The position numbers and the translations under genes were made by a program. This document shows positions 1-17,672 of a stretch of DNA of 17,672 nt, one piece after another (within the stretch, counting starts at the first letter, position 1; each line of letters opens with the position of its first letter). The notes below the pieces were generated by a model, which saw only the letters and a program-made list of their open reading frames with translations, was not told the DNA's origin and searched no databases. This stretch comes from a virus (lineage: Duplodnaviria > Heunggongvirae > Uroviricota > Caudoviricetes), in the IMG/VR virus record IMGVR_UViG_2529292998_000008. One strand, given 5' to 3'.

Positions 1-171
1 GCCACGGTTACTCCGAAACTGAATGGAGTGGCTGGCCCGGCATTCCAGGTCATAAAAGACAGTCTGACACTGGGGCTGAATGCGCTGACGTTAACTGATA
101 TCACTAAAAATGCCGCGTACGGCGTCGATATCGGCAGCCTGGTGCTGGAAATCAATAATCCCGCAGCATAA
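1..171 (+). CDS. 3' end of an upstream phage gene (partial, function unknown; possibly lysis-module by synteny)
   Basis: Frame 1 is open from the window start to TAA at 169-171 (…GSLVLEINNPAA*); not in the ORF track because no start lies in the window. Confidence 0.3.
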   Translation, partial: ATVTPKLNGVAGPAFQVIKDSLTLGLNALTLTDITKNAAYGVDIGSLVLEINNPAA

Positions 172-194
172 GGAAGAGCAGGAGAGCAAAACAG

Positions 195-662
195 ATGCTT
201 AAGACAAACAGTCTGCGAGAGTCCATGCTTCATGGGTGTCGGTGGTGCCAGGCTAATCCCGAGAAATTCACCATTTTCGTGGAGAGCGGCAACATTGAAA
301 CGACCGGAGAAGCGCCCTCGTTTGTTTACCGCTATCAGATGGTGATGTTTGTCATGGATTACGCCGGAGAGCTGGACGACCTCACGCTGCCGCTGCTGGC
401 GTGGTTATCCGAAAATCAGCCACAGTTGTTGCTCAATCCGGAGCGTAATCAGGACATCAAATTTTCTGCCGTTATCAATGACGATGACAGCGCCGATCTC
501 CTGTTTACGCTCCCCCTGCGGGAACGCGTTCGCATCACGCGCAACAGTCAGGGCACACCGCAGGCAGAACACCTGCCGGAGCCAAAACCCCGTCTGCCCT
601 CTTCCGAAGGCGACTGGTCGCATGTATTCCAGGATGTGACGTGGGGTGAAAGCGATGGATAA
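195..662 (+). CDS. R: Tail completion protein, P2 gpR-like
   Basis: 155 aa ORF; AGGAG-like RBS upstream of ATG 195; position immediately upstream of the S/V/W/J block; size matches P2 gpR. Confidence 0.7.
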   Translation: MLKTNSLRESMLHGCRWCQANPEKFTIFVESGNIETTGEAPSFVYRYQMVMFVMDYAGELDDLTLPLLAWLSENQPQLLLNPERNQDIKFSAVINDDDSADLLFTLPLRERVRITRNSQGTPQAEHLPEPKPRLPSSEGDWSHVFQDVTWGESDG

Positions 663-1290
663 GGCATTCACCAGCGTGGATGAAACCTTTGAGGCTATCC
701 GCGACAGCCTGAATCAGCAGGCCATCAATAACATCGCCAGAAAGCTGGCACAGGATTTACGTCGCGCCCAGCAGGCACGTATCCGATCACAAAAAGCGCC
801 GGACGGGACCGAATGGACACCACGCAGACGCCGCGTAACCCGGATACAGGAGCGCATTCGCTTTATCTGGAATAACGAAGCACGCACGCTGAAAAACTGG
901 CATCACGACACGGGGAAATACGGGCGAACCATTACCGGGTGGGATGAGGATAAAAACAATATCCGCACGTTTTACCGGGATGACATCGACCGTTTTCTGG
1001 AAATACGCACCCGGCGCATCAACCAGGACAGCACAAAGCGCGTCCCCATGTTTGTAAAACTGCGCACCGCCCGCTACCTGAAAGCCCGTGCAGATGCTTC
1101 CGGTGTGACGGTGGGTTACAGCGGCGTGGCCGCACGTATTGCCCGCGTTCATCAGTTCGGTGAGCGCGATCAGGTTGCGCCGGGCATTTTCACCGATTAC
1201 CCGGTACGTGAGCTGCTGGGTATCAGCCAGGCAGATGAGCGCCTGATTTATAACACGGTGCTGGGCCGGATTGCGGAGGCTGTACGGTGA
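646..1290 (+). CDS. S: Virion morphogenesis / tail completion protein, P2 gpS-like
   Basis: 214 aa ORF overlapping R by 17 nt (translational coupling); synteny R-S-V. Confidence 0.7.
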   Translation: MKAMDKAFTSVDETFEAIRDSLNQQAINNIARKLAQDLRRAQQARIRSQKAPDGTEWTPRRRRVTRIQERIRFIWNNEARTLKNWHHDTGKYGRTITGWDEDKNNIRTFYRDDIDRFLEIRTRRINQDSTKRVPMFVKLRTARYLKARADASGVTVGYSGVAARIARVHQFGERDQVAPGIFTDYPVRELLGISQADERLIYNTVLGRIAEAVR

Positions 1291-1868
1291 GCGCAGAACT
1301 CATGCGACTGCTGAGCAATATCATCCGCACCGGGATCATCTCTGAAGTTGATGAGAAGTCCTGGCGCGTGCGCGTTCGCAGCGGCGAACTGGAAACAGGC
1401 TGGCTGCGCTGGAACACCACGCGCGCGGGAGCCTTCAATGTGTGGCTGCCGCCATCACCAGGCGAACAGGTGGTAATTGCCTGCATTGGCGGCAACCCGG
1501 AAACCGCCATGATAATTGGCAGCCTGTGGAGTGATGCCAGTCCGGCCCCCGGCAAAAGCCTGAAAGAAATCGTGATCAGCGCGCCGGACGGCGCGGTGTT
1601 CCGCTACGACGCAGACGCTGGCGCACTGAGCGCCAGCGGCATGAAAACGGCCACTTTACAGGCATCCGTCAGCGTGAAACTGGACACGCCCGTCGTGGAA
1701 TGCACAAACCTTCTGAGAACGGCGACGCTTGACGTCACAAAAGGAGGAAAGATGAGCGGCAATATCACGCACAGCGGCGGCAACTTCACCTCAAACGGCA
1801 TCACAGTGCATACGCATAAACACGGTGGCGTGAAAGGCGGCAGCGATTCGACAGGAGGCCCGCAGTGA
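1287..1868 (+). CDS. V: Baseplate assembly protein V (spike), P2 gpV-like
   Basis: 193 aa; ATGA-type overlap with S stop; synteny and size typical of gpV. Confidence 0.75.
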   Translation: MSAELMRLLSNIIRTGIISEVDEKSWRVRVRSGELETGWLRWNTTRAGAFNVWLPPSPGEQVVIACIGGNPETAMIIGSLWSDASPAPGKSLKEIVISAPDGAVFRYDADAGALSASGMKTATLQASVSVKLDTPVVECTNLLRTATLDVTKGGKMSGNITHSGGNFTSNGITVHTHKHGGVKGGSDSTGGPQ

Positions 1869-2215
1869 CAACCCGCTACACAGGAATGAATCCGGACGGG
1901 ACGGGAAACCTGAACGATATGGAGCACCTGAAACAGTCAGTCAGGGATATCCTGATCACCCCGCTGGCAAGCCGGGTTATGCGACGGGAATATGGCAGCC
2001 TTGTGCCTGATTTGATTGACGAACCCATGAATAACACAACTCGTCTGCAATGCATGAGTGCTGCCGTGATTGCGCTGACACGATGGGAACCCCGCATTGC
2101 CCTGGACGCCATCGACGTTGTCTGGAAGGCAGGAGGCCGCGCCGGGGTGACGCTGTCGGGCACTGTCATGCAGACCATGCAGAATGTTGAATTAACCATC
2201 ACGCTGAGAGAGTAA
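1865..2215 (+). CDS. W: Baseplate wedge protein W (gp25-like)
   Basis: 116 aa, overlaps V stop; size and position match P2 gpW. Confidence 0.8.
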   Translation: MTTRYTGMNPDGTGNLNDMEHLKQSVRDILITPLASRVMRREYGSLVPDLIDEPMNNTTRLQCMSAAVIALTRWEPRIALDAIDVVWKAGGRAGVTLSGTVMQTMQNVELTITLRE

Positions 2216-2218
2216 ATC

Positions 2219-3115
2219 ATGCCTGCTGTTGACCTTTCCCAGTTACCGGAACCCGCCATCATCGCGAAGCCTGATTTTGAGGCAATTCTGGCTGACACAA
2301 AGGCCATGATGATTGCGTCCTATCCTGCCGAACAGCGTGAAGCCGTCTCCGCCGCGCTGGAGCTGGAATCGGAACCCCTGAACGTTATCGCTCAAACCAT
2401 GTCTTTTCGTGAAATGCTGTTACGCCAGCGGGTTAACGAGGGCGCACGCGCCTGCATGTTAAGCCACGGTTCAGGGACAAACCTGGACAACCTCGCGGGC
2501 AATATGAACACAAAGCGCCTGGTTATCACTCCGGCAACGGATACCACCGACGCGGTGATGGAGAGCGACACCTCGCTGAGATTGCGGGCGCAACGGGCGT
2601 ATGACGGCCTGAGTGTTGCTGGCCCGTCAGGTGCATACGAGTATTTTGCACGCAGCGCCAGCGGTCTGGTGCGTGATGCGCGGGCCATCAGCCCGTCTCC
2701 GGCCTGTGTGACGGTTTCCATCCTGTCCACTGAAGGCGACGGCACAGCAACGGAGGCGTTGCTTAATACCGTTCGCGCCGTTCTGAATGCAGAGGATACC
2801 CGCCCGGTGGCCGACCGCCTGACCGTACAGAGCGCCAGAATCGTGACATGGCGGCTGAATGCAAAACTGTACTTTTACCCCGGCCCGGAATCCGAACCTA
2901 TTCTGGCCGCGGCTGAATCGTCGTTCAGGAAGTGGCTGGCTGAGCAGGGGCTTATCGGTCAGGACGTGGCGTTGTCCGCCATTGCTGCCGCACTGCATGT
3001 GCACGGTGTGCAACGCGTGGAGATAATCGAACCCACACAGAATATGGCCATCAGCGACATACAGGCGGCGCGCTGTGAGTCATTCACCATCAGCGAAGGT
3101 GGACGCAATGAGTAA
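2219..3115 (+). CDS. J: Baseplate protein J
   Basis: 298 aa (P2 gpJ about 300 aa); follows W by 3 nt. Confidence 0.8.
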   Translation: MPAVDLSQLPEPAIIAKPDFEAILADTKAMMIASYPAEQREAVSAALELESEPLNVIAQTMSFREMLLRQRVNEGARACMLSHGSGTNLDNLAGNMNTKRLVITPATDTTDAVMESDTSLRLRAQRAYDGLSVAGPSGAYEYFARSASGLVRDARAISPSPACVTVSILSTEGDGTATEALLNTVRAVLNAEDTRPVADRLTVQSARIVTWRLNAKLYFYPGPESEPILAAAESSFRKWLAEQGLIGQDVALSAIAAALHVHGVQRVEIIEPTQNMAISDIQAARCESFTISEGGRNE

Positions 3116-3716
3116 TTCGTTGTTACCACCATCAGCCAGCAATTTCATGCGTTGTGCCGAAGCCGTCGGAACACGCATTACAGACATTCCGGTAGACCTC
3201 AACACGCTGTGGTCGCCGGACACCTGCCCGGTGCATCTGCTGCCTTATCTCGCCTGGGCGTTTTCCGTTGACCGCTGGGATCGCAACTGGCCGGAAGAGA
3301 CAAAGCGACAGGTGATTCGTGATGCATGGCTGATACACCGACACAAAGGGACCATCAGCGCACTGCGAAGAGCCGTGGAGCCTCTCGGCTACCTGATTGA
3401 AGTAAAGGAGTGGTGGCAACTCAACGAGGAGCCGGGAACATTTCGCATTGTTGTCGGAGTACTTGATCAGGGCATCACCGATGAAATGCATCAGGAACTT
3501 GAGCGCCTTATTGCGGATGCAAAACCAGTAAGTCGCCATCTGACGGGGCTGGCGATCAGCCTGAGTGTGAACGGAAAGATTTTCGTTGGTACGGGATGCT
3601 ATCACGGCGATGCCCTGACGGTTTATCCCTACACCCCGGAGTCCATTATTGTCGAAGGGGACTATTTCCCTGCCCCGGCCATTCATTTAATTGATAATCT
3701 GAGAGTAAACGCATGA
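3108..3716 (+). CDS. I: Baseplate / tail-fiber-attachment protein I
   Basis: ATG at 3108 with AAGGTGGA RBS, overlapping J stop; the ORF track's 3075 start is a GTG extension; stop overlaps H start (ATGA). Confidence 0.75.
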   Translation: MSNSLLPPSASNFMRCAEAVGTRITDIPVDLNTLWSPDTCPVHLLPYLAWAFSVDRWDRNWPEETKRQVIRDAWLIHRHKGTISALRRAVEPLGYLIEVKEWWQLNEEPGTFRIVVGVLDQGITDEMHQELERLIADAKPVSRHLTGLAISLSVNGKIFVGTGCYHGDALTVYPYTPESIIVEGDYFPAPAIHLIDNLRVNA

Positions 3717-5383
3717 CAGTGAAATACTACGCTATTCTGACTAATCAGGGCGCGGCACGACTGGCTAACGCGACGATGCTCGGCAGTAAACTGAATCTGA
3801 CGCAAATGGCCGTTGGTGATGCAAATGGTGTGTTACCAACACCAGACCCTGCACAAACAAAACTGATTAACCAGAAACGCATTGCACCGCTGAATCTTCT
3901 GAGTGTTGACCCTAACAATCAGAGCCAGATTATTGCGGAGCAAATCATCCCTGAAAACGAGGGAGGATTCTGGATCCGTGAGATTGGTCTTTATGATGAT
4001 GAAGGTGCACTCATTGCGGTGGCAAACTGCCCGGAAACGTACAAACCGCAGTTGCAGGAAGGCAGTGGACGCACCCAGACTATCCGCATGATTCTGGTTG
4101 TCACGAACACCGAAGCCATCACGCTGAAAATCGACCCGTCTGTGGTTCTGGCAACCCGCAAATATGTGGATGATAAAATATCAGAGCACGAACAATCACG
4201 ACGTCACCCGGACGCCTCGCTGACCGTAAAAGGTTTTACTCAGTTAAGCAGTGCAATTAACAGTGAATCAGAAACACTGGCCGCAACACCGAAAGCGGTT
4301 AAGGCTGCATATGACCTGGCTAACGGGAAATATACCGCCCAGAACGCCACCACTACACAAAAAGGGATTGTTCAGCTCAGTAGCGCCACGAACAGCACGT
4401 CTGAAACGCTGGCAGCGACACCAAAAGCTGTTAAGGCGGTAATGGATGAAACGAACAAGAAAGCACCATTAAACAGCCCGGCACTGACCGGAACGCCAAC
4501 AACACCAACAGCGCCACAGGGGGCTAATAGTACCCAGATCGCAAGCACGGCTTTCGTTATGGCCGCGATTGCCGCACTTGTAGATTCGTCACCTGATGCA
4601 CTGAACACGCTGAACGAACTGGCTGCGGCGCTGGGCAATGACCCGAATTTTGCGACCACCATGACTAACGCGCTTGCGGGTAAGCAACCGAAGAATGCCA
4701 CCCTGACGGCGCTGGCGAAGCTTGCTACATCAGCAGATAAACTCCCATATTTTACAGGGGCAGATCGTGCCGCGTTAACCGCGTTGACAAGTGTTGGACG
4801 TGCCATTCTTGGTAAAACCAGCACTCAGGGAGTTCTTGATTACCTTGGTTTGGGGGAAGGCTCTGCACTGCCCGTTGGTGTACCTGTTCCGTGGCCCTCA
4901 GCCACTCCACCAACGGGCTGGCTGAAATGCAACGGCGCAGCATTTTCTCCTGAAGATTACCCCAAACTGGCACAGGCTTACCCCGCGAACAAATTACCGG
5001 ATCTACGGGGTGAATTTATCCGTGGCTGGGATGATGGACGTGGCTTGGATGCTGGGCGTGCCTTGCTAAGTCTTCAGGATGACTCTTTTGAAGCGCACAG
5101 GCATGAGTCCTTTTTTTATGCGGGTATTTCACGTAATGAGATCCCATTAAAAAATCTTCCAAGTTCAGACGAGATGCTGACTTTAAGTTCCACAACTAAT
5201 GCCTTGTCCCCGGACGATATTGATGCCACCAACTCGTTAATTGGTAATGACGATTACAACTGTCTTATCGAAGGGAATAAAAATAACAAACGAACAGCGA
5301 CAGGACTGAGTACCAGTATTGTCGGCACAGCAGAAACACGCCCCCGCAACGTTGCATTCAATTACATCGTAAGAGCCGCATGA
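3713..5383 (+). CDS. H: Tail fiber protein H: constant N-terminal part fused in the current orientation to C-terminal cassette C1
   Basis: 556 aa; N-terminus typical of P2 H / Mu S tail fibers; contains two SETLAATPKAVK-type fiber repeats; the C-terminal ~180 aa (from ~4847) is homologous to four downstream cassettes. Confidence 0.9.
   Translation: MTVKYYAILTNQGAARLANATMLGSKLNLTQMAVGDANGVLPTPDPAQTKLINQKRIAPLNLLSVDPNNQSQIIAEQIIPENEGGFWIREIGLYDDEGALIAVANCPETYKPQLQEGSGRTQTIRMILVVTNTEAITLKIDPSVVLATRKYVDDKISEHEQSRRHPDASLTVKGFTQLSSAINSESETLAATPKAVKAAYDLANGKYTAQNATTTQKGIVQLSSATNSTSETLAATPKAVKAVMDETNKKAPLNSPALTGTPTTPTAPQGANSTQIASTAFVMAAIAALVDSSPDALNTLNELAAALGNDPNFATTMTNALAGKQPKNATLTALAKLATSADKLPYFTGADRAALTALTSVGRAILGKTSTQGVLDYLGLGEGSALPVGVPVPWPSATPPTGWLKCNGAAFSPEDYPKLAQAYPANKLPDLRGEFIRGWDDGRGLDAGRALLSLQDDSFEAHRHESFFYAGISRNEIPLKNLPSSDEMLTLSSTTNALSPDDIDATNSLIGNDDYNCLIEGNKNNKRTATGLSTSIVGTAETRPRNVAFNYIVRAA
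4228..4450 (+). repeat. Two copies of a ~29-aa phage tail fibre repeat inside H (…SSA.NS.SETLAATPKAVKA…)
   Basis: Near-identical peptide and nucleotide blocks at ~4228-4314 and ~4361-4450. Confidence 0.7.
4833..4858 (+). repeat. Candidate crossover site s1 (hix/gix-like, H constant/variable junction)
   Basis: On the opposite strand reads CCTTCCCCCAAACC-AA-GGTAATC, resembling the AAACC-NN-GGTTT core of Hin-family sites; start of the ~210-bp block shared by all cassettes. Confidence 0.55.
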
Positions 5384-5402
5384 AAACGTTGGTTTGGGGA
5401 AA
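5377..5402 (+). repeat. Candidate crossover site s2
   Basis: GCATGAAAACG-TT-GGTTTGGGG at the C1 stop / C2 junction; direct orientation relative to s1. Confidence 0.55.
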
Positions 5403-5822
5403 GGCTCTGCGCTGCCCGTTGGTGTGCCCGTTCCGTGGTCCTCAGCAACACCACCAACGGGCTGGCTGAAATGTAACGGCGCAGCATTTTCTTCTGAAAT
5501 GTATCCCGGACTGGCAAAGGCTTACCCCACCAATAAATTACCGGATTTACGGGGTGAATTTATCCGTGGCTGGGATGATGGGCGCGGGATTGATGCGGGA
5601 CGTACCCTGCTTTCAGGGCAGGATGGTACAAGTTTTTCTCATTACGGAGGTAATTTCGACATTGGGTCTGGTCATTCAATCAATAACTATGACCAAATTG
5701 TTTCTAACCAACCAAGCTTTTCCCGTTTTTCATTTGCAGGACCTTCACGAGGTGATGGGGTCAATTATGTAACCATTCGTCCTCGTAATATTGCGTTTAA
5801 TTACATCGTAAGGGCAGCATGA
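5394..5822 (+). CDS. Silent tail fiber C-terminal cassette C2 (no ATG; expressible only after fusion to H)
   Basis: 142-codon frame beginning GKGSALPVGVPVPW…, ending RPRNIAFNYIVRAA*; conserved ~70-aa N-part, unique middle. Confidence 0.65.
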   Translation: MGKGSALPVGVPVPWSSATPPTGWLKCNGAAFSSEMYPGLAKAYPTNKLPDLRGEFIRGWDDGRGIDAGRTLLSGQDGTSFSHYGGNFDIGSGHSINNYDQIVSNQPSFSRFSFAGPSRGDGVNYVTIRPRNIAFNYIVRAA

Positions 5823-5841
5823 AAACGTTGGTTTGGGGGAA
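5816..5841 (+). repeat. Candidate crossover site s3
   Basis: Same GCATGAAAACG-TT-GGTTTGGGGG junction sequence between C2 and C3. Confidence 0.55.
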
Positions 5842-6309
5842 GGCTCTGCACTGCCCGTTGGTGTGCCTGTTCCATGGCCCTTAGCAACACCACCAACGGG
5901 CTGGCTGAAATGTAACGGTGCAGCATTTTCTTCTGAAATGTACCCCAAACTGGCAAAAGCCTACCCCACTAATAAATTACCGGATTTACGCGGAGAATTT
6001 ATCCGTGGCTGGGATGATGGGCGAGGAATTGATGCGGCACGCGCTTTATTGAGCATTCAAAACGGGATGTTGGAAAAACACCGCCATATTGTTGTAGCTA
6101 ACGATGGATATGACACAAAAGATGAATGGGAGTTGGCTACGATTTTCAAAAAAACATATACACAAGGCAGGGGGCTTGATGCCACAAATACAGGAGGGAG
6201 TTTGATTCCATCACCAACGCTTCATTCACGAGGAAGTATTGGTAACACAGGTGGTAGTGAAACCCGCCCCCGCAATATTGCATTTAACTATATCGTGAGG
6301 GCGGCTTAG
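5833..6309 (+). CDS. Silent tail fiber C-terminal cassette C3
   Basis: 158-codon frame GEGSALPVGVPVPWPLATPPTGWLKCNGAAF… ending …NIAFNYIVRAA*; no ATG start. Confidence 0.65.
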   Translation: MGEGSALPVGVPVPWPLATPPTGWLKCNGAAFSSEMYPKLAKAYPTNKLPDLRGEFIRGWDDGRGIDAARALLSIQNGMLEKHRHIVVANDGYDTKDEWELATIFKKTYTQGRGLDATNTGGSLIPSPTLHSRGSIGNTGGSETRPRNIAFNYIVRAA

Positions 6310-6315
6310 TTATAT

Positions 6316-6927
6316 TCAACTGGCTGCTGCCAGTGGTATTTCCGGCAAGTTGATATCTGGTACCATGTTTATATCCATTGCGTTCAGCGCGTCTATATAA
6401 TCCAGCACGGCATTAAGCCGGGTGGTTTCTGCCTGCGTCAACTTCCGCCCGGCCTGCAACTTCAACTGAATCAGACTTATGGAAGCCATTGCCGCATCAG
6501 CCAGTGACTGGCGCTTGGTTTCTGCCGCTTCTACTGCGGCACGATGTTGTGCCTCAGTATCTGTCACCCATTTTTCACCATCCCATTTATCGTATGGTGT
6601 TAACGGGGCGATAGTGGTTGTAGTTTTCGGGTAGTCACCCAGCGCCGTGATTTCTTCGGTGTTTCCCGTGTCAGTGCTATAGACGGTTTCACCACGATGG
6701 TCTGGCGCATACTCCCATGAACTTAAATTCTCCGAACGGCGGATAGCATAGCCCGCTTTATGTGCGCCCGGGGCATCTAAACAGGAATTTGCCGGAATAC
6801 CGACACCCACAGCAAGATATTCAGTTGATTCGGAAATATATTCCCGTGTCTCACCATCATAGTTATAAACGACGATGTTTCCTGCCTGTACGGCAATAAG
6901 GTCATCATTTAATATCGCGTTATTCAT
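6316..6927 (-). CDS. Tail fiber assembly chaperone (Tfa; Mu U / P2 G / TfaE family)
   Basis: 203 aa; C-terminal half recognisably similar to E. coli TfaE (…DHRGxTVY…KWNG/DGxxWVxDTEA…); start ATG overlaps the stop of cassette B (TAATG). Confidence 0.8.
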   Translation of the reverse strand: MNNAILNDDLIAVQAGNIVVYNYDGETREYISESTEYLAVGVGIPANSCLDAPGAHKAGYAIRRSENLSSWEYAPDHRGETVYSTDTGNTEEITALGDYPKTTTTIAPLTPYDKWDGEKWVTDTEAQHRAAVEAAETKRQSLADAAMASISLIQLKLQAGRKLTQAETTRLNAVLDYIDALNAMDINMVPDINLPEIPLAAAS

Positions 6928-7385
6928 TATGCGGTTCTCACAATATAATTGAAGGCAATATTGCGTGGGCGGTTTTCATTCCCATCTGAGGATTCCGTTC
7001 TGTATTGACTGGTAAATCTACCGTTAATTGCACCTTGCCGGACGGCGTTATCTGTCGACAACAGACTATCCCCTCTTTTGTCATTTGGCACCAGTACCGT
7101 GTTATCCCACGCATCCCATGACCGAATATTATGATAATGACTTCCTGTTAACCACCCCTGCATGCTTAAGATGCCCCTTCCGGCATCCACCCCGCGCCCA
7201 TCATCCCAGCCACGGATAAACTCACCGCGTAAATCAGGTAATTTTAACGTTGGGTAAACCTTTGCCAGATTTGGGTACATTTCAGAAGAAAATGCTGCAC
7301 CGTTACATTTCAGCCAGCCCGTTGGTGGTGTGGCTGAGGGCCATGGAACAGGCACACCAACGGGCAGTGCAGAGCCTTCCCCCAA
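6927..7385 (-). CDS. Tail fiber C-terminal cassette B (inverted orientation, translationally coupled to tfa)
   Basis: 152-codon frame GEGSALPVGVPVPWPSATPPTGWLKCNGAAF… ending …NIAFNYIVRTA*. Confidence 0.65.
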   Translation of the reverse strand: MGEGSALPVGVPVPWPSATPPTGWLKCNGAAFSSEMYPNLAKVYPTLKLPDLRGEFIRGWDDGRGVDAGRGILSMQGWLTGSHYHNIRSWDAWDNTVLVPNDKRGDSLLSTDNAVRQGAINGRFTSQYRTESSDGNENRPRNIAFNYIVRTA

Positions 7386-7402
7386 ACCAACGTTTTCATG
7401 CT
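7377..7402 (-). repeat. Candidate crossover site s4 (inverted relative to s1-s3)
   Basis: Plus strand reads TTCCCCCAAACC-AA-CGTTTTCATGC, the reverse complement of the s2/s3 junction. Confidence 0.55.
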
Positions 7403-7959
7403 GCCCTTACGATGTAATTAAACGCAATGTTGCGTGGGCGGTTTTCGTTTGCAGTTGGAACAATTTTTGAAGCATCAAGGCCAATCACTTTTGGGTAAAC
7501 AGCGCCGTCTGTCCTTTCTGTCACCATACTTCTGACTAAGGAGAAATAACTATTGTTTGTTGAGGAATTTAAAGGCACCACTGCCCCCTTAAACGAGCCT
7601 ACTGATTCCCATATTGAATAATTTTCAGTGTTTACAGTCTTGAACTCACCATAGATATTACGTATGGCATCACCTTGAGCGGATAATATTGTTCTCCCCG
7701 CATCCGCACTACGTCCATCATCCCAGCCACGAATAAATTCACCCCGTAAATCCGGTAATTTATTGGTGGGGTAAGCCTTTGCCAGTCCGGGATACATTTC
7801 AGAAGAAAATGCTGCGCCGTTACATTTCAGCCAGCCCGTTGGTGGTGTTGCTGAGGGCCACGGAACGGGCACACCAACAGGCAGCGCAGAACCTTCCCCC
7901 AAACCAACGTTTTCGTTTTTATCCCTACCTATACCAACTATGTATTTTTCACGAAACAA
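7396..7959 (-). CDS. Tail fiber C-terminal cassette A (inverted orientation, nearest the invertase)
   Basis: Frame …VGLGEGSALPVGVPVPWPSATPP… ending …NIAFNYIVRAA*; the ORF track's N-terminal extension to a TTG at 7959 is probably not translated. Confidence 0.6.
   Translation of the reverse strand: MFREKYIVGIGRDKNENVGLGEGSALPVGVPVPWPSATPPTGWLKCNGAAFSSEMYPGLAKAYPTNKLPDLRGEFIRGWDDGRSADAGRTILSAQGDAIRNIYGEFKTVNTENYSIWESVGSFKGAVVPLNSSTNNSYFSLVRSMVTERTDGAVYPKVIGLDASKIVPTANENRPRNIAFNYIVRAA
7894..7919 (-). repeat. Candidate crossover site s5 (inverted; sits just upstream of the invertase promoter/start)
   Basis: Plus strand CCTTCCCCCAAACC-AA-CGTTTTCGTT at 7894-7919. Confidence 0.55.
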
Positions 7960-7973
7960 AGAGGATGTTTTTT

Positions 7974-8573
7974 ATGCAAATTGGCTATGTTCGTGTGTCA
8001 ACAAATGACCAGAACACGGATTTACAACGCAATGCACTGAACTGCGCAGGATGTGAACTGATTTTTGAAGATAAAATCAGCGGAACGAAATCAGCCAGAC
8101 CGGGATTGAAAAAACTGCTCAGAACGCTATCAGAAGGAGATACGCTGGTTGTCTGGAAGCTGGACAGACTGGGCAGAAGTATGAAACACCTGATCACGCT
8201 TATTGAGGAATTGCGGGAAAAAGGTGTTAATTTCCGTAGTCTGACGGACAGCATTGACACATCAACACCCATGGGGCGTTTCTTTTTTCACGTCATGGGG
8301 GCTTTAGCCGAAATGGAACGTGAATTAATTGTAGAGCGTACACTGGCCGGGCTGGCAGCAGCACGCGCACAAGGACGCATTGGCGGACGTCGCCCGAAGT
8401 TGACAAAAGAACAACACGAGCAAATAGCGAGGCTGATTAAAAACGGTCATGACAGGAAACAACTGGCGATCATTTACGACATCGGCATATCGACGATTTA
8501 TCGTTATCACCCTGTAGGCGATATACAGGCTGAAGAAACAACCAGGCAGACTCAGGAAAATGAAAACCGCTAA
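7974..8573 (+). CDS. Site-specific DNA invertase, serine recombinase of the Hin/Gin/Cin/Pin family
   Basis: N-terminus MQIGYVRVSTNDQNTDLQRNAL with catalytic Ser in the VRVST motif; C-terminal HTH (GISTIYRY); GAGGA RBS 8 nt before ATG 7974; the ORF-track start at 7779 is an upstream in-frame extension. Confidence 0.9.
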   Translation: MQIGYVRVSTNDQNTDLQRNALNCAGCELIFEDKISGTKSARPGLKKLLRTLSEGDTLVVWKLDRLGRSMKHLITLIEELREKGVNFRSLTDSIDTSTPMGRFFFHVMGALAEMERELIVERTLAGLAAARAQGRIGGRRPKLTKEQHEQIARLIKNGHDRKQLAIIYDIGISTIYRYHPVGDIQAEETTRQTQENENR

Positions 8574-8592
8574 TCTGACCATTAGCGGTTTT
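8562..8592. terminator. Bidirectional intrinsic terminator between convergent invertase and U
   Basis: Perfect inverted repeat AAAACCGCTAAT-CTGACC-ATTAGCGGTTTT, with A-run on one side and T-run on the other. Confidence 0.6.
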
Positions 8593-8599
8593 GCGTTAA

Positions 8600-9094
8600 T
8601 CAAAACAGCCCTTTAACGGAGCTGGCCGCGCTGTTAAGGGATGATGTGACCTTATCTTTGAAGCCGGACAGCATATCACTGAACGATGAGGATTGCAGGC
8701 GCTCCCGCAAATCCTCATCACAGCGTTCAAGAGTCAGTGAAAACTCTATCTTTTTCGCCTTACCGTAGCGATCAAACTCGGAGCGGGTCGTATTCGTTCC
8801 GGTCAGGACATACATGCCGTAAATCTGCCCGACACCATCAATCAGAGGCCAGGGGCGTCCTGTATATGCCTGCGTGGTCAGCAACGAAAGCGACACTTCG
8901 CCACCTGTAATTTCAGGATAAAGCACACCAGAAAGAACGATGCGATCATCGCCTGCCCCGATATACTGCCAGCTTGCTGAACGGTTAACGCGTTCATTTT
9001 TCACATGCCGCCAGCTTTTGTTTTGCTGTAACTGCTGATGCGGCAACGTACGCAGCTCAAAAACAAACATGCCGTAGATCATCATCATGGCCAT
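8600..9094 (-). CDS. U: Tail protein U, P2 gpU-like
   Basis: 164 aa; recognisable similarity to P2 gpU (…GMFVFxxxTLPHQ…GVLYPExTGG…WPLxDGxGxIYGMYV…). Confidence 0.85.
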   Translation of the reverse strand: MAMMMIYGMFVFELRTLPHQQLQQNKSWRHVKNERVNRSASWQYIGAGDDRIVLSGVLYPEITGGEVSLSLLTTQAYTGRPWPLIDGVGQIYGMYVLTGTNTTRSEFDRYGKAKKIEFSLTLERCDEDLRERLQSSSFSDMLSGFKDKVTSSLNSAASSVKGLF

Positions 9095-9100
9095 GACTCC

Positions 9101-11917
9101 TCAATCTTTATCGTAAAAACTGCCACGCCCGGCACGGGCGCGCCGTTCCATTTCTGCCCTGACCATTTCACCGACCAGTTTCGCCAGTTCGCGGGGATTC
9201 TGCGTAACAACGTTATGCAGATGAACATGAATTTCACCACCAAATCCGGAGGCAACAGGCTCCCGGTTACGGGAAGTTACAGGAACTGATGCCACTGGAG
9301 ATCGTATGGCCTCCGCCACCGGGCGGGAGCTGGCCGCAACAACAGGGACCAGCGCCGGAGGCAGCGGAGCCGGGACCACGGGGGTGATATTCATTGCGGG
9401 GGCAGGCTTACTGACCTGTGCAATCTTCCGCTCCTGCCACTCCCCACGAACAGCAAGTGCGCGGGGCAGGTTCTTAAAGACAATATCGCCGGGGCCAATA
9501 CGTTTTTTTGTCTCATCAACCAGCTTACCTGTGTTATCAGCAATTTTGCTGAGTCTGCGTAGCGTGCCGGTATTGCTGTCTGTGAGCGGTTTGTTGTCTT
9601 TGGGTTTATCGCCTCCGGTGCCATTGCCATTTTCCGCAGACTTCGGCGGATTGATTTTCGCAATGTCTCCCTGAAACAGAGCAACCTTGTCCTGAAGAAT
9701 GGCCGCACGCTGTGCGTCTTCGATTTTCTTTCTCGCCCTTTCCGCTTCATCCGGAAGCACACCGAGTTTTTCAAGTATCCACGCCAGCGTATCCAGCAAC
9801 ATTTTTGCAGGCGTCAGAACAAGCTGTAGCGCGCCACCAAGAGCGTTACCGAATATCTCGCCAGCACTGGTACATTTATCCAGCGTTTCCTTGCTGGACT
9901 CCATCGGTGACAGCAGCGATTTAAACCAGTTAAACACCTGGCTGATCCCGCTTCCGATTGCGTCAAAAACAGGACCAAACCGTTCAAAGGTTTCACGCAA
10001 CGGGTTCAGCCTTTCCATAATCCCGCTGAACACCCCGGCAAAAAATGCCCTGATGGGATCCCAGTATTTCCAGATAAGAACGGCAGCTCCGGCAAGCGCA
10101 GCCACGATAAGACCAACCGGACTGAACAGCGCCCCGATAGCGCCTCCCAGCAAAGAAACGGAACCCGTCACCATTCCCCACAGCGCAGGCAACACCCTGA
10201 CGACATTCATTGACCGGGTAAGAATGTCAAAACCAAGACGCAGGGTGGCCAGCTTCCCGTAAAGCACCCCAATAACCAGTGACAACGAGCCAATCGTTGC
10301 AGTCATTGCCAGCAACGCACCGCCTGCTATCAGTAGCTGGCGCGTCAGTACCGGATGGGCCTGCGCCAGCGAGGTGATTTTTTCAAGCACCCGCGTGAGC
10401 CACTGCGTGACAGAACGCAGCGGACCGTCAACCAGATCACTGATGCGAATACGAAGACCTTCCCATGCGCTGTCGAGATTTTTCAGGTCCCCATCAAGAT
10501 TATCGGCCATTACTTTTGCAACGCGATCGGCCTCTCCCCTTGCCCCCTGCAATTCTCTGGTCAGTTTTTGCAGCTCTCCTGAACCAGCCGCCGCAACAAG
10601 CGTCTGCAAACCAACGAACGCCTCTTCTCCGGCGATGTCCTTGAAGAAGGAGACCTGGTCCACCTGTCCGTATTTTTGTGTCGCCTTATAGAGATCAAGC
10701 AGCACATCCTCCATCGGGCGCATTTTGCCTCTGGCGTCAGCAACTGACACCCCCAGCTCTTTCAGTGCATCAGCCGCAGCTTTTGGCGGTGATGCAAGGC
10801 GGGACAGACTTGCGCGCATGGCCGTGCCAGCATCGCTTCCGCGAAGACCATTATTGGCAAGCATCCCGGCCATAGCCGCCGCTTCTTCAAGACTGATACC
10901 AAGTTTTGCGGCAACCGGACCGGTATACTTCATGGTTTCGCCCAGCGCGCGTAAATCAGTATTGGTCCGGGTGAATGCCGCTGTCAGCGTATCGCCAACC
11001 CGGTCCATTTGATCGGCTGTCAGGTTGAACTGTGTGAGGATATTGGAGCCTATATCCGCCGTCTCGCCGAGTTCGACGCCACCTGCCAGCGCCATATTAA
11101 GAACACCGGGCAATGCGGCCTGAATGGCCTGCGGAGTAAAACCAGCCATTGCCAGAAAGCTCTGCCCACTGGCGGCATCACTCGCAGTAAACTGTGTTTC
11201 AGAGCCAAGTTTTAACGCCTGCTCACGCAGCGCCTTAAACTGCGGGCTGTTTTTGTCGATTCGCGTCAGTGCCTGAACGCGGGACATCTCTTTGCCGAAC
11301 CCGATCGCAGGCTGCAAAAAACGCCCGGCAGCATAGCCGCCCGCCGCTGCCGCACCAATTGCCAGCGCACCACCTGTTTTCAGTTTTCCCGCGGTTTCCT
11401 GCGCGCGCGAATACCGCTCACGCGCCCGCGTTACACGCGCAAGCGCCTGCCGTTCGCGTTCAAGCTGGTTGTTGTACTGTTCGGTGCGTCTGATGGCCTG
11501 CTGGATGGTGTTATCGCTGCCTGTCAGGGAAATGCCGTGGCGTTTCAGCTCTCCGCCAAGCTCCCGCATTTTCTGAATTTCCCGTGTGCGCGATTCATTC
11601 AGGCGTTCAAGCCGGGTGCTTAACTGCTGCATCAGCTTTTGTTGTTTTTCGCTGAGCACTGTACCCGTGCGTTGTAACTGATTAAGGGCGTTAAGCTGGC
11701 GTCGTGCTTTCACGATACCCGCATCCGCTTTACTGACAGCGTCGCGGGCGCGCTCAAATGATCGCGCCTGACGCTCGAGATTTTTGATCGCCCCCTGCGT
11801 TCGCTGGATGGAGTCACCAAACTGCCCCATCAGGCGGCGGGCGTTTTCGGCAGGCCGGGTCAGCCTGTCAACGGCGCTGAAAGCGACCCGGATATCAAGA
11901 GTCTTCATTGTCTGCAT
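9101..11917 (-). CDS. T: Tail tape measure protein T
   Basis: ~940 aa, coiled-coil-rich N-part and hydrophobic central segment; between E' and U. Start ambiguous: first ATG at 11917, in-frame GTG at 11944. Confidence 0.85.
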   Translation of the reverse strand: MQTMKTLDIRVAFSAVDRLTRPAENARRLMGQFGDSIQRTQGAIKNLERQARSFERARDAVSKADAGIVKARRQLNALNQLQRTGTVLSEKQQKLMQQLSTRLERLNESRTREIQKMRELGGELKRHGISLTGSDNTIQQAIRRTEQYNNQLERERQALARVTRARERYSRAQETAGKLKTGGALAIGAAAAGGYAAGRFLQPAIGFGKEMSRVQALTRIDKNSPQFKALREQALKLGSETQFTASDAASGQSFLAMAGFTPQAIQAALPGVLNMALAGGVELGETADIGSNILTQFNLTADQMDRVGDTLTAAFTRTNTDLRALGETMKYTGPVAAKLGISLEEAAAMAGMLANNGLRGSDAGTAMRASLSRLASPPKAAADALKELGVSVADARGKMRPMEDVLLDLYKATQKYGQVDQVSFFKDIAGEEAFVGLQTLVAAAGSGELQKLTRELQGARGEADRVAKVMADNLDGDLKNLDSAWEGLRIRISDLVDGPLRSVTQWLTRVLEKITSLAQAHPVLTRQLLIAGGALLAMTATIGSLSLVIGVLYGKLATLRLGFDILTRSMNVVRVLPALWGMVTGSVSLLGGAIGALFSPVGLIVAALAGAAVLIWKYWDPIRAFFAGVFSGIMERLNPLRETFERFGPVFDAIGSGISQVFNWFKSLLSPMESSKETLDKCTSAGEIFGNALGGALQLVLTPAKMLLDTLAWILEKLGVLPDEAERARKKIEDAQRAAILQDKVALFQGDIAKINPPKSAENGNGTGGDKPKDNKPLTDSNTGTLRRLSKIADNTGKLVDETKKRIGPGDIVFKNLPRALAVRGEWQERKIAQVSKPAPAMNITPVVPAPLPPALVPVVAASSRPVAEAIRSPVASVPVTSRNREPVASGFGGEIHVHLHNVVTQNPRELAKLVGEMVRAEMERRARAGRGSFYDKD

Positions 11918-12424
11918 TCCCGCTGCGAAGTGCCGCCCGCTCACGCCAGCTAACCACTTCGCCGGGCGTCATCATGAAGATTTCGGCGGGCGACCAGTTA
12001 AAAATGGCGGCAATATCCGCCACAAAGTCTTCTATGTGCTCAAAGCACACAACCGTGATCAGGCTTCCGTCGCCTGTTCGCTCTTCCCGCCAGAGTCCGC
12101 ACCGCTCAAAAAATTTACGGCAACCACACATAACTGAATAAAATCACGGGATGCCATTTTTTTGATCGTCACTTCATCCAGTCGTGGCGAGGTCACGCGT
12201 GACAGCAGCGTAAACATGGATTCCGCTTTCAGATTCAGCACATCAGACAGCGACAAATCTCGCAGAGATCCAGCCTGCTCAATAGCCCCGGTGATCTCCA
12301 CATACGTGATTTTTTCGCCGCCTCGCTCAATTGGTTGGGTAAGTTTTACGCCACGCTCACTGGTTTCTTTCACAGTGTCAGTAACTACCGTGTTTTCGGT
12401 ATCGATGTTTTTCGTCTCTTTCAT
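11895..12424 (-). CDS. E': Tail assembly chaperone E+E' (product of a programmed -1 frameshift)
   Basis: The -1 frame downstream of a T-TTT-TTG slippery heptamer (plus-strand 12107-12113) stays open to 11895 and overlaps the T start, as in P2 E/E' and lambda G/GT. Confidence 0.7.
12059..12424 (-). CDS. E: Tail assembly chaperone E
   Basis: 121 aa; AAAGGAG RBS before the ATG at 12424; lies between FII and T. Confidence 0.8.
   Translation of the reverse strand: MKETKNIDTENTVVTDTVKETSERGVKLTQPIERGGEKITYVEITGAIEQAGSLRDLSLSDVLNLKAESMFTLLSRVTSPRLDEVTIKKMASRDFIQLCVVAVNFLSGADSGGKSEQATEA
12107..12113 (-). promoter_or_regulatory. Slippery heptamer for the E to E' -1 ribosomal frameshift
   Basis: Minus-strand sequence AAT-TTT-TTG-AGC in the E frame. 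Confidence 0.6.
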
Positions 12425-12478
12425 CAGGAAACTCCTTTCAGTCAGAGGCGACGCACTGCGCCGCCTGCATATTACTTA

Positions 12479-12991
12479 TCAGCCAAGCCCGAGCGCGGAA
12501 CGGATGCGATCGGGCACAATGTCCTTGCCGTCCTTCCGGTAGATGTGGTTCAACAGGTCGATTTCCCACAGCGGGCGATCGTTAACGCTCAGCTTGTAGT
12601 AGGTGTTTTTGACAGCGTAAGTGTGTGATGTGGCTTCGCCCTGTTTGGCCTCCCCCATATCAATTTCCGTCACACGCCCGCGCATCTCGATTTCATACAG
12701 ATCGCTTTCTGCATCGGTGTAGTATTCACCCGCAAAACGCAGCAGCGTGCCGTCAATCGTGCCGCCATATTTAAGGAACAGCGCACGAACAGCTCCCCCC
12801 ATGACAAAGCTCGCATCAAGCGCGGAGTCGTCCAGACCGAGATCAATACTTACCGCCCCCATCATGCCACCACCCCGGTAGCTGTCGGTTTTGCGCGTCA
12901 GCTTAGGCAGAGTGACGGACGTCACCTTACCCACTTCGTTTTCACCATCCACAAACAGCGTAAAAAAGCGAAGATGTTTTGGTACAGCCAT
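12479..12991 (-). CDS. FII: Tail tube protein FII
   Basis: 170 aa; recognisable similarity to P2 FII (…VTLPKLTRK…YRGxGM…DLGLDD…RFAG…MRG…EIDxGExKQGE…). Confidence 0.9.
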   Translation of the reverse strand: MAVPKHLRFFTLFVDGENEVGKVTSVTLPKLTRKTDSYRGGGMMGAVSIDLGLDDSALDASFVMGGAVRALFLKYGGTIDGTLLRFAGEYYTDAESDLYEIEMRGRVTEIDMGEAKQGEATSHTYAVKNTYYKLSVNDRPLWEIDLLNHIYRKDGKDIVPDRIRSALGLG

Positions 12992-14175
12992 CAGGCACCT
13001 CCCAGCACCGCAAATGCGGGACCAAAGAATTCATCAGTAAACGTCTGGTAAAGCTCCATGTCTTCCAGTGGCGGAACGGGCGTATATTTGTAGCGAATAC
13101 GCACACGTCCCTGACGTAAATCCGTGGTGCCGTTATCCACCACGTCATACCAGCACTCCGCGCCAATCAGTTTCCCGGCAGTAACCAGCGAATCCAGTTT
13201 TGCCCTGATGGCACTGATAACATCCTTCACGTTCGCAGGCGTCAGTGGACTGTCGATGGTTTCAAACTGCGCTTCCGCAATTGAATCAGCCAGCACCTGT
13301 GCGGTTCGGGTATACACCTCAAAGATGTAGGCGTTCGTTTCCGGTGTGCGGTTGCCCCAGAAGCGGAACCCGTTACGACGAATAATGGTCGTGATTTCTT
13401 TGTTGTTGAGGCTGTTGGCATCACTGTCTTCGGCCTGTAACGACCAGAACACATGCCTCGACATCCCCAGCACATTTTTAACCGGAACGTTGGACAGCGA
13501 TTTGTGCCAGCCCTGCTCATGGTCAATGTACGCACGAAGGCCGCACGCATAAGCAGGCGCGGGGAACGTTTCGTTTTTGCCACTTTTCGGGTTGTAGGCG
13601 ATGAAGTCAGGCCATAAGAGCATCACCTCACGTTCGTTGAATTTCTGGCGGTAGGTAATCGCCTCAGCCATCGTGTTACAACCATGACATGCGGCATACA
13701 CAAACGCGCGCAGTTTACCCGCAATCACGCACAGGGATTTTGTCACCGCCTCCGTGTCCAGCTCCGGCGCGGCCAGAATACGCGGACGGTATCCGATGCT
13801 TTCATCCTGCTCTGCAACAAGCAGCGCATACATCCCCGTATAGCTGCCGTCAGATTCAGAACCACCGATAACCAGTTGATCCTGCGTCTTTCCGTTTTCT
13901 TCTTTGTGTTCAGCCACGCGAACGACGATCACCTTTGTGCTCACCTGGTCTGCGATGGCCTTAAGCGCACGATAAAGCGTCCCCGTTGTCCCGCATTTTC
14001 CCAGCACGTCATTGACGCGGGTCAGCAGTGTGGGCTTGTTCAGCGGGAACAGCTTCGCGTCCGCATCATCCGCCGTTGCCACGATACCGATAACGCTGGA
14101 ATCAACATCGTTAATCGCTGTTACCAGGTCGGTACTTTCCGTAACACGGGCACCATGAAAACGAGTTTCACTCAT
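12991..14175 (-). CDS. FI: Contractile tail sheath protein FI
   Basis: 394 aa; strong similarity to P2 FI (…DADAxxFPLNKP…WPDF…QGWHKxLSNV…GFRFWGNRT…YTPVPPLE…); AAGGGG RBS. Confidence 0.9.
   Translation of the reverse strand: MSETRFHGARVTESTDLVTAINDVDSSVIGIVATADDADAKLFPLNKPTLLTRVNDVLGKCGTTGTLYRALKAIADQVSTKVIVVRVAEHKEENGKTQDQLVIGGSESDGSYTGMYALLVAEQDESIGYRPRILAAPELDTEAVTKSLCVIAGKLRAFVYAACHGCNTMAEAITYRQKFNEREVMLLWPDFIAYNPKSGKNETFPAPAYACGLRAYIDHEQGWHKSLSNVPVKNVLGMSRHVFWSLQAEDSDANSLNNKEITTIIRRNGFRFWGNRTPETNAYIFEVYTRTAQVLADSIAEAQFETIDSPLTPANVKDVISAIRAKLDSLVTAGKLIGAECWYDVVDNGTTDLRQGRVRIRYKYTPVPPLEDMELYQTFTDEFFGPAFAVLGGA

Positions 14176-16379: not shown

Positions 16380-17672
<1,293 letters not shown>

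Follow-up and report, generated by a model that had tools for sequence, protein, structure and literature searches.

A probable five-site multiple-inversion switch of collar-type tail-fibre tips in a P2-like prophage of Escherichia coli

Genes and crossover sites of the tip array

The analysed window is a 17,672-nt stretch of a virus of the class Caudoviricetes (IMG/VR record IMGVR_UViG_2529292998_000008). Its tip array (positions 4847–7905) is made up of five cassettes of 143–178 aa and a single tfa gene; one serine invertase gene, to the right of the array, completes the locus. The constant 5′ part of the fibre gene H (3713–4846, + strand; 378 codons) matches the N-terminal Pfam domain Phage_tail_fib (E = 1.3e-62) and Phage_fiber_2 repeats, and is ~87% identical at the nucleotide level to P2 H (query positions 464–1061). 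H is presently joined to cassette C1, giving an ORF at 3713–5383. Cassettes were delimited from the GGT of a crossover site to the stop codon; all are in frame from this GGT, and none has an ATG of its own.

Cassette C1 (4847–5383, +; 178 aa), the tip expressed in the window arrangement, has a middle of the HxH class. It is followed by silent cassette C2 (5391–5822, +; 143 aa), which has the smallest middle (53 aa) and lacks HxH, and by silent cassette C3 (5830–6309, +; 159 aa, HxH class), which is convergent with tfa and carries a 3′ end of the type found beside tfa. The tail fibre assembly (chaperone) gene tfa (6316–6927, −) was identified by Pfam Caudo_TAP (E = 8.9e-31) and PHROG 105 (E = 1e-89), and its ATG overlaps the TAA stop codon of cassette B (TAATG). 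Silent cassettes B (6927–7388, −; 153 aa, HxH class) and A (7396–7905, −; 169 aa, with a middle of the GDAIRNI class) complete the array. The invertase gene (7974–8573, +; 199 aa) belongs to the Gin/Hin/Cin/Min family and is convergent with gpU; between the two, a pattern scan found a 12-bp hairpin (8563–8592) that looks like a bidirectional terminator closing the locus on the right.

Sites recognized by Hin-family enzymes are 26 bp long, and five Gin/Hin-type sites of this length are present, three on the + and two on the − strand, each starting one cassette. Site 1 (4833–4858, +) lies at the junction of the constant and variable parts of H and reads TTCTTGATTACC TT GGTTTGGGGGAA. The final codon of C1 and its stop lie in the left half of site 2 (5377–5402, +); site 3 (5816–5841, +) has the same orientation. 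Sites 4 (7377–7402, −) and 5 (7894–7919, −) are inverted relative to sites 1–3, and the left half of site 5 is non-coding and precedes the invertase gene. The core AAACSNNGGTTT occurs four times, compared with 0.17 occurrences expected by chance. The sites have the 12-2-12 layout of the Din family (Gin/Hin/Cin/Pin/Min), with AAACC/GGTTT-like inner half-sites, and the right half-site GGTTTGGGGGAA resembles that of Mu gix, GGTTTACAGGAA.

The invertase, which begins MQIGYVRVSTNDQ, matches Pfam Resolvase (E = 4.7e-51) and HTH_7 (E = 2.3e-12) and is 70% identical in amino acid sequence to Mu Gin. Both the catalytic domain of the Din family (YxRVST, here GYVRVSTNDQ) and the C-terminal HTH are present. 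In this family, a Fis-dependent recombinational enhancer would be expected in the 5′ part of the invertase gene. Over nt 1–120 the gene is ~75% identical to gin, and a search of it for such an enhancer revealed one Fis-like motif common with gin (nt 71) and no second motif at the expected spacing, which counts against the assignment. The sole recombinase of the locus is a serine resolvase/invertase and not a tyrosine recombinase of the Rci type acting on sfx sites, as in the R64-type shufflon. The tail block from FI to U (8600–14175) was considered as a further invertible segment and rejected, since it has neither flanking site-like sequences nor meaningful inverted repeats. A diversity-generating retroelement was likewise discarded: a Pfam scan of 20 ORFs from the window found no reverse transcriptase.

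Cassettes as collar-type tips with variable middles

Each cassette has a conserved N-part of 76 codons. The relationship of this part to tail-collar domains, proposed in the initial annotation, was confirmed by profile searches: all five cassettes score above the gathering threshold of Pfam Collar PF07484 (51–56 bits versus a cut-off of 24; E = 1.3e-13 to 4.8e-15), and each is also matched end to end by PHROG 523 ('tail collar fiber protein'; E = 1e-63 to 1e-75). NCBIfam offers no dedicated model for any of these cassettes, nor for tfa or H. Direct matches were obtained to T4 fibre proteins, namely, the gp37 tip (2XGF, E = 7e-17) and gp12 (1OCY, E = 7e-6). The N-part aligns to gp37 chain residues 27–93 of 2XGF, and the C-terminal NIAFNYIVRAA of C3 to the nearly identical gp37 C-terminus NIAFNYIVRLA (chain residues 219–242); the C2 terminus aligns likewise. 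The chain of gp37-type tips folds back towards the collar, and HxH metal-site motifs have been described in these tips (PMC12609058). As the gp37 chain leaves the collar and then returns to it, the variable middle of a cassette would correspond to the receptor-binding excursion. Judging by homology, each cassette would be a miniature receptor-binding tip of the T4 gp37/gp12 type with a trimeric collar fold, in which the N-part and the last 14 residues would jointly make up the collar.

An AlphaFold2 monomer model of C3 built from a 17-sequence alignment was unusable (mean pLDDT 39.9), and the collar topology proposed here is therefore based on the homology to 2XGF. PDB entry 9CUY (phiTE short tail fibre) was also tried as a template for the tip; it matches whole cassettes in sequence, but only its residues 3–92 were modelled experimentally, and it was therefore rejected for this purpose. 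The GDAIRNI class of cassette A occurs in the phiTE sequence too, in the part without an experimental model.

The cassettes share the C-terminus RPRN(I/V)AFNYIVR(A/T)A. The same terminal motif had been claimed for every cassette; RPRNIAFNYIVRAA is indeed exact in C2, C3 and A, but C1 (V for I) and B (T for A) depart from it by one residue each. Conservation of both cassette ends would be expected, because the fold requires it and because all tips must be compatible with one common shaft and presumably also with one common chaperone.

The middles between these ends have lengths of 53–88 aa, and no two of them can be aligned. GC content is 0.40–0.46 in the middles, compared with 0.52–0.57 in the N-parts and 0.51 in the H constant part; thus, the architecture of conserved ends around a variable, GC-poorer middle was borne out, and gp37 provides a structural reason for it. 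An HxH motif directly follows the collar in C1 (HRH), C3 (HRH) and B (HYH); C2 and A have none. The excursion is shorter than the ~125 aa of 2XGF (chain residues 93 to 219), and whole cassettes (143–178 aa) are, as first noted, much shorter than the variable parts of Mu (319–335 aa). A population survey covered 183 cassettes from 127 loci. Clustering at 85% identity yielded 34 middle types among these relatives (13 HxH, 11 GDAIRNI and 10 other), and middle types are common to P2-like prophages and P1-like phage-plasmids. Across relatives, the middles are under purifying selection, with dN/dS of 0.04–0.22 (0.04 for the C3 middle).

Proposed multiple inversion and the single tfa gene

Taken together, the region very probably represents a host-range switch of the Min/p15B multiple-inversion type in an E. 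coli P2-like prophage. The constant 5′ part of H ends at one 26-bp site, and four further copies, two direct and two inverted, precede promoterless cassettes. In the proposed mechanism, recombination of inverted site pairs by the adjacent invertase could bring each of the five cassettes into frame with the constant part. At every junction, a variable left half-site would have to meet the conserved right one, a rule that predicts n! × 2 arrangements, i.e., 48 with the four segments that can invert here. The locus, with five sites and as many in-frame cassettes, goes beyond the two sites of a simple switch and the minimum of three alternative 3′ cassettes that marks multiple inversion.

Isomers were found in relatives, where the same cassette set occurs in different signed permutations (loci L005, L016, L020 and L021). 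L016, L020 and L021 present three arrangements of the cassette types {c1, c18, c26, c14}, and in L005 H is fused to a B-type cassette and tfa lies on the + strand. By analogy with these loci, inversion would also be expected in the window strain. One core unit, consisting of a B-type cassette, tfa and a convergent C3-type cassette, is universal among the relatives; the B-type middle (cluster c26) is always directly upstream of tfa and co-oriented with it (26 of 26 cases). Homologous arrays also occur in P1-like phage-plasmids; these too have a single tfa and an invertase, along with a second, truncated recombinase gene.

One of the closest known systems is the Min multiple inversion of plasmid p15B from E. 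coli 15T−, which was reportedly described by Sandmeier, Iida, Arber and colleagues in 1990–1992 and is said to have six sites and 240 isomers, a number that the n! × 2 rule reproduces. Both systems have a Din-family serine invertase and more than two sites, which do not all point the same way, and in both a single constant 5′ fibre part is accompanied by several short 3′ cassettes as alternatives. Cassettes 92% identical to those of the window are found in p15B-like phage-plasmids, which also have one tfa and a truncated second recombinase gene. However, p15B is a P1-like plasmid, whereas the present array is chromosomal, in a P2-like prophage, with five sites and 48 predicted isomers. The window invertase is closer to the chromosomal prophage lineage; by a rough marker, it is ~76–78% identical to the plasmid invertases.

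A second close system is the P2-like prophage of EPEC E2348/69, for which a 'shufflon' with three inverted repeats and four coexisting variants with three alternative C-termini was demonstrated by sequencing and PCR (Goldberg et al. 2014, PMC4272514). In E2348/69, three sites and as many cassettes follow the layout of the window (H, C3-type cassette, tfa on the − strand, B-type cassette, invertase), with 97% nucleotide identity over the common parts, and the n! × 2 rule gives four arrangements for this locus. The window differs in having two extra cassettes and sites (C1 and A) and hence five tips. The spans that we measured in E2348/69, 1998 and 1559 bp, differ from the 'around 2,200' and 'around 1,800' of the paper (PMC4272514), so the locus is only probably the published module.

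The Mu G segment with Gin and the P1 C segment with Cin share with the window a homologous invertase, host-range switching through exchange of the fibre C-terminus, and a homologous right half-site at the same coding-frame position in the fibre gene (GL.E). Mu, in contrast, has two sites and two variable parts, each with a dedicated tfa (U or U′), rather than five sites and a single tfa. In the R64 system (Rci, pilV), several inversions also put alternative C-termini on one constant gene, but there the enzyme is a tyrosine recombinase and the product a pilus adhesin, in place of a serine invertase and a phage fibre; the term 'shufflon' applies to the present locus only loosely.

A rival reading is that the small ORFs are independent short tail-fibre genes, each expressed alone. 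RefSeq lists each cassette as a separate CDS ('phage tail protein', TTG starts), and mechanical ORF calling also finds TTG starts. These 'starts' nevertheless sit within the crossover site; the search for an ATG or a promoter returned neither for any cassette, the reading frame of the H constant part runs across the site, H is fused to differing cassettes in relatives, and a collar domain of 143–178 aa would have no baseplate-attachment part, all of which makes independent expression highly improbable. A further reading is that the array is a frozen remnant, that is, decaying duplicates in a defective prophage that has lost switching. The inversion of the tail genes FI to U relative to the canonical P2 order and the antisense position of tfa with respect to H would suit such decay, but the invertase and all five cassettes are intact, with the low dN/dS given above, isomers exist in relatives, and the sister prophage of E2348/69 switches experimentally. 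We therefore consider loss of switching very unlikely and retain the multiple-inversion switch as the preferred reading.

One feature is left unexplained by this switch model and counts against it: tfa points the same way as H in half of the 48 arrangements, and in none of those that express C3. If one tfa serves all tips, it must be expressed in either orientation. The 60-bp spacer that separates site 5 from the invertase gene possibly contains a leftward promoter that drives tfa; an Ogr-type dyad (7941–7958) lies there. As a leftward Ogr-type late promoter, this dyad was rejected, as it has no acceptable −10 at the spacing typical of P2, and exact TGT-N12-ACA dyads are below the chance count (two in the window versus 4.6 expected). 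Its conservation adds no independent support, because it is kept only in the same invertase-upstream lineage, in which conservation extends to the entire spacer. Transcription of tfa in the − orientation could come from read-through out of the convergent U/T tail operon, but this was rejected as unlikely because the terminator-like hairpin at 8563–8592 intervenes. It is conceivable, though on balance doubtful, that the conserved termini together provide one universal collar scaffold recognized by the tfa chaperone, so that one flipping tfa services every tip. If this were true, one tfa would serve five tips here and at least 13 in some phage-plasmids, and new receptor specificities could be added by recombining in an insert of 55–90 aa.

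Divergence of cassette ends around the crossover sites

A further question concerns the evolution of the sequences adjoining the sites. Over the last 21 coding nucleotides, pairwise comparison of C1, C2 and A gives 0–2 differences, and C3 and B each show 4–6 differences from any other cassette. This split is confined to ~24 nt, as the preceding 21 nt (RPRNIAF) do not display it, and over the whole 42-nt end C1 and C2 are only 78.6% identical. The near-perfect 3′ identity first reported for C1, C2 and A thus holds for the last 21 nt, but its zone is only ~24 nt long. On the other side of the site, dS among cassettes is 0.04–0.36 in the first 33 codons and 0.44–1.14 in codons 34–76, so that divergence along the cassettes is non-uniform, as had been expected.

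Among the 183 surveyed cassettes, the last ~24 nt track the context and not the middle type, with GTA beside a site and GTG beside tfa. After dereplication, GTA was present in 53 of 54 site-abutting ends and GTG in 58 of 62 tfa-abutting ends. Five middle types were found in both contexts, always with the end typical of the context. The ends of C3 and B at tfa had been regarded as having drifted at synonymous positions; they are distinct from the others, but the tfa-side ends constitute a conserved haplotype of their own (AAY TAT ATY GTG), which is not simple drift. Moreover, identity within loci exceeds that between loci only at −30 to −3 and +1 to +100 around the sites, and in permutations the observed value was reached in 0 of 500 and 1 of 500 cases.

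Context-linked ends and the within-locus excess give population-level support to the homogenisation linked to sites that the initial annotation had suggested, and the comparisons support site-linked concerted evolution near the crossover sites. In this process, a block running from the 3′ end of one cassette through the site into the first ~100 nt of the following one would evolve in concert within an array, and the sequence adjoining a variable middle would remain linked to that middle. The likely cause would be homologous gene conversion or duplication of junction modules. One observation counts against this model: in ends that abut a site, codons −7 to −4 hardly vary (GTA in 53/54, AAT in 54/54) and codons −3 to 0 are polymorphic (AGR GCN GCA TRA), a pattern in which identity does not simply fall off away from the site.

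That same pattern, together with the low dS in the first 33 codons past the site, is what would be expected if synonymous conservation in the left flank (AAT TAC ATC GTA) and over ~100 nt of the right flank were selected at the DNA level, e.g., as an extended or accessory recombination element, rather than resulting from gene conversion or shared descent. Such selection appears unlikely: sites 1 and 5 have unrelated left flanks and must recombine too, serine recombinases do not need flanking homology, the tfa-context ends are equally conserved with a haplotype of their own, and the within-locus excess of identity is a prediction of concerted evolution. A more serious alternative, which we still rate below concerted evolution, is that the 3′-end pattern is purely historical and involves no ongoing homogenisation, the site junctions having descended from one duplicated module and the tfa ends from an ancestral Mu-like tip-tfa/tfa-tip pair. 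It agrees with the universal B-type–tfa–convergent C3-type core and with the two sharply distinct haplotypes that follow context across P2-like prophages and P1-like plasmids. The occurrence of one middle type in both contexts with context-specific ends, however, indicates that ends and middles have recombined repeatedly, and the greater likeness of junctions within than between loci, near the site only, suggests continuing turnover.

The type of system is already known, reportedly from p15B in 1990–1992 and as an active module in EPEC in 2014, a point absent from the initial annotation, and the window carries a larger example than the sister prophage. New here are only the population-level evidence for near-site concerted evolution and the puzzle of the single tfa. 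For genome annotation, it is useful that silent cassettes appear as separate genes in RefSeq and, for assembly, that many contigs break within the array; the fixed scaffold may also help in the engineering of fibre tips. For the phages themselves, a change of host specificity would need little sequence, namely, an insert of 53–88 aa in a fixed collar scaffold, silent cassettes and inversion, and the repertoire available to them is sizeable, with the 34 middle types found at the 127 loci.

Prophage setting, crossover sites and cassettes

The window belongs to a P2-like prophage of E. coli. On the + strand, Pfam matches identified R, S, V, W, J, I and H (195 to 5383), and on the - strand, between 14175 and 8600, the sheath (FI), the tube (FII), the tape measure (T) and U. 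The FI-FII-E-T-U block (8600-14175, -) is followed by D (14201-15442, +), an Ogr/Delta zinc-finger homologue (15483-15743, +) and host serS (16380-17672, -). Relative to the canonical P2 gene order, this block is inverted; it converges with the H operon and diverges from D, and neither site-like sequences nor meaningful inverted repeats were found at its flanks. PO06021, 160-11H1 and E2348/69 share this layout. The closest record, E. coli PO06021, is 99.5% identical and lacks cassette A, and related loci are present in 3,060 of 5,426 complete E. coli genomes and also in P1-like phage-plasmids.

The core GGTTTGGGG occurs five times in the window, always within the same ~40-nt context, with starts at 4847, 5391 and 5830 on the + strand and at 7388 and 7905 on the - strand. 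The sites read as 12-2-12 (26 bp): site 1 is TTCTTGATTACC TT GGTTTGGGGGAA, and the other four are ..GAAAACG TT GGTTTGGGGGAA, with GGTTTGGGGAAA in site 2. The right half-site resembles Mu gix (GGTTTACAGGAA), whose position within the fibre reading frame (GL.E) it shares, and the pattern AAACSNNGGTTT was found four times in the window vs 0.17 expected. The serine invertase encoded at 7974-8573 (199 aa) is 70% identical to Mu Gin and carries both a Resolvase and an HTH_7 domain.

Five cassettes were defined by the open frame from the GGT of each site to the stop codon: C1 (4847-5383), C2 (5391-5822) and C3 (5830-6309) on the + strand, and B (6927-7388) and A (7396-7905) on the - strand. The constant part of H (3713-4846) is fused at present to C1 only. 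The TTG "starts" listed for the other cassettes fall within the crossover site itself; therefore, the silent cassettes are probably not separate genes. Annotation pipelines and RefSeq (related loci L001, L002 and L004) make each of them an independent "phage tail protein" CDS, with ORF starts in the window at 5394, 5833, 7385 and 7959.

Number of arrangements

Serine invertases of the Gin/Hin family recombine inverted sites. In the proposed mechanism, every junction would pair a variable left half-site with a conserved right half-site, the C1, C2 and A segments running from a right-type to a left-type end and the core segment (C3-tfa-B, including the tail fibre assembly gene) carrying right-type ends on both sides. 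The permitted states would then comprise any order of C1, C2 and A, with four possible positions and two orientations of the core and with the segments to its right inverted. This gives 3! x 4 x 2 = 48 arrangements, the general rule being n! x 2. For six sites, the rule yields 240, the same figure as that reportedly given by Sandmeier et al. in 1990 for the isomers of the Min region of p15B, which is said to contain six crossover sites. Applied to the EPEC E2348/69 locus with its three sites, the rule yields 4, and 4 arrangements were found there experimentally (PMC4272514).

The E2348/69 locus as fetched has exactly the layout of the window in reduced form: H fused to a C2-type cassette, followed by a C3-type cassette, tfa (-), a B-type cassette and the invertase. 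Its three sites give inversion spans of 1998 and 1559 bp. Because the published spans are "around 2,200" and "around 1,800" (PMC4272514), the fetched locus is probably, but not certainly, the published one. Other fetched loci, e.g., L016, L020 and L021, carry the same cassette set in differing signed permutations, and in L005, H is fused to a B-type cassette and tfa lies on the + strand.

A p15B-like array of 13 cassettes was found at positions 1-7300 of locus L003, from a 92-kb P1-like plasmid (NZ_CP196102.1). At least 12 crossover sites lie in the fetched stretch, and the array has a single tfa, an invertase and a second recombinase gene that is truncated; two cassette types are each represented twice, and two cassettes carry pseudogene annotations. 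The n! x 2 rule would put its arrangements at the order of 1e9, far beyond the six-site p15B. Many IMG/VR contigs (L005-L012, L017-L019 and L024-L028) terminate within or directly beside the cassette array, as would be expected from collapsed repeats or from a sequenced population in mixed inversion states. In one of them, L008 (IMGVR_UViG_2541047915_000010), the order C3-type, tfa(-), tfa(+), C3-type(-) forms a palindromic duplication around tfa that inversion heterogeneity may have produced as an assembly artefact.

Tip architecture and probable homogenisation near the sites

The initial annotation had proposed collar-like tips with conserved ends and a variable, less GC-rich middle. All five cassettes match Pfam Collar (E 1e-13 to 5e-15) and, over their whole length, PHROG 523 "tail collar fiber protein". 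Their first 76 codons are 83-90% identical at the nucleotide level, while the middles (53-88 aa) are unalignable and have a GC content of 0.40-0.46 vs 0.52-0.57 in the N-parts. Synonymous divergence grows with distance from the site, dS being 0.04-0.36 over codons 1-33 and 0.44-1.14 over codons 34-76. Thus, divergence along the cassettes is clearly not uniform, and neither uniform divergence nor a lack of collar-type similarity, the two outcomes that had been named as contrary to the proposal, was found. The ending of 14 residues supposed to be common to every cassette (RPRNIAFNYIVRAA) is exact in C2, C3 and A, and C1 and B each carry one substitution. The middles show dN/dS values of 0.04-0.22, i.e., purifying selection, so that the silent cassettes are being kept for use.

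The match of C3 to the T4 gp37 receptor-binding tip (2XGF, E 7e-17) falls into two pieces: the N-part aligns with chain residues 27-93, and the C-terminus aligns with residues 219-242 (NIAFNYIVRLA in gp37 vs NIAFNYIVRAA here). C2 behaves in the same way, and C3 also matches T4 gp12 (1OCY, E 7e-6). [quoted passage not shown] Given the match at both ends and this doubling back, the sequences suggest that the conserved ends and variable middle represent a collar scaffold into which a short receptor-binding excursion is inserted. An HxH motif directly after the collar is kept in C1, C3 and B; A belongs to the GDAIRNIxGxF class, and C2 to neither class. An AlphaFold2 monomer model of C3 was uninformative (pLDDT 40), and the phiTE fibre (9CUY) was dropped as a template, the part matching the cassettes not being experimentally built. 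Near-identical C3-type tips in the protein database (P0004-P0105) mostly lie on ~256-aa proteins with a ~100-aa N-terminal part unlike H; therefore, the same tip cassette also serves other, shorter E. coli fibre genes.

The 3' ends had been described as near-perfect in nucleotide identity only in the cassettes abutting a crossover site, a pattern taken to suggest site-linked homogenisation. Over the final 21 coding nt, C1, C2 and A indeed show 0-2 differences among themselves, and C3 and B show 4-6 differences from all others; the preceding 21 nt show no split between the two groups. Among 183 intact cassettes extracted from 127 sources (126 fetched loci and the window), site-abutting ends read AAT TAC ATC GTA AGR GCN GCA TRA followed by AAACGTTGG, and tfa-abutting ends, whether co-oriented or convergent, read AAY TAT ATY GTG. 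After dereplication, GTA was present in 53/54 site contexts and GTG in 58/62 tfa contexts, so that the ends next to tfa, supposed to have drifted, instead form a conserved haplotype of their own. Five middle types (clusters c14, c1, c4, c10 and c19) were found in both contexts, always with the end of the context, while synonymous variants from codon -8 upstream track the middle. Junction identity within loci exceeded that between loci at -30..-3 (0.931 vs 0.888; reached in 0/500 permutations) and at +1..+100 (0.910 vs 0.889; 1/500), with no excess at -68..-31 or +101..+200. The context-specific ends and this restricted excess support site-linked homogenisation. The same pattern can be read in reverse, as diversity linked to selected middles that decays toward the site. 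Next to a site, codons -7 to -4 hardly vary, and the three codons closer to the site are polymorphic, which does not fit a steady loss of identity away from the site. As for homogenisation, serine recombination involves no exchange of flanking heteroduplex, which makes homologous gene conversion or the duplication of junction modules the likely agent.

A single tfa alongside five tips

One tfa (6316-6927, -; Caudo_TAP, E 9e-31), located between C3 and B, accompanies the five tips, and a single tfa is likewise present in every relative, including the 13-cassette phage-plasmid. The B stop codon and the tfa ATG overlap at 6925-6929 (TAATG), which suggests that tfa is translationally coupled to whichever fibre ORF ends in B. 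Inversion of the core segment turns tfa as well. Of the 48 predicted states, 24 have tfa in the orientation of H, none of them with C3 as the expressed tip; despite this, constraint is strongest in the C3-type middle (dN/dS 0.04).

Two sources of tfa transcription in the antisense states were considered. The invertase and gpU genes converge on a 12-bp hairpin with an A-run on one side and a T-run on the other (8563-8592; AAAACCGCTAATGGTCAGATTAGCGGTTTT, - strand reading), which resembles a bidirectional terminator and makes read-through from the U operon unlikely. The P2 Ogr-binding motif TGT-N12-ACA is present as an exact dyad at 7941-7958, between site 5 and the invertase ATG, and is conserved in loci sharing the same upstream spacer and absent from the P1-plasmid lineage. 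It is unconvincing both statistically (2 exact dyads in the window vs 4.6 expected, not significant by count) and geometrically (poor spacing to any -10 element).

Thus, the feature is real and was correctly described by the initial annotation, whose interpretation is largely right. The system is of a known kind, namely, Min-type multiple inversion of gp37-like collar tips, and such inversion has already been demonstrated to be active in a sister prophage (E2348/69, probably the same locus as that fetched).
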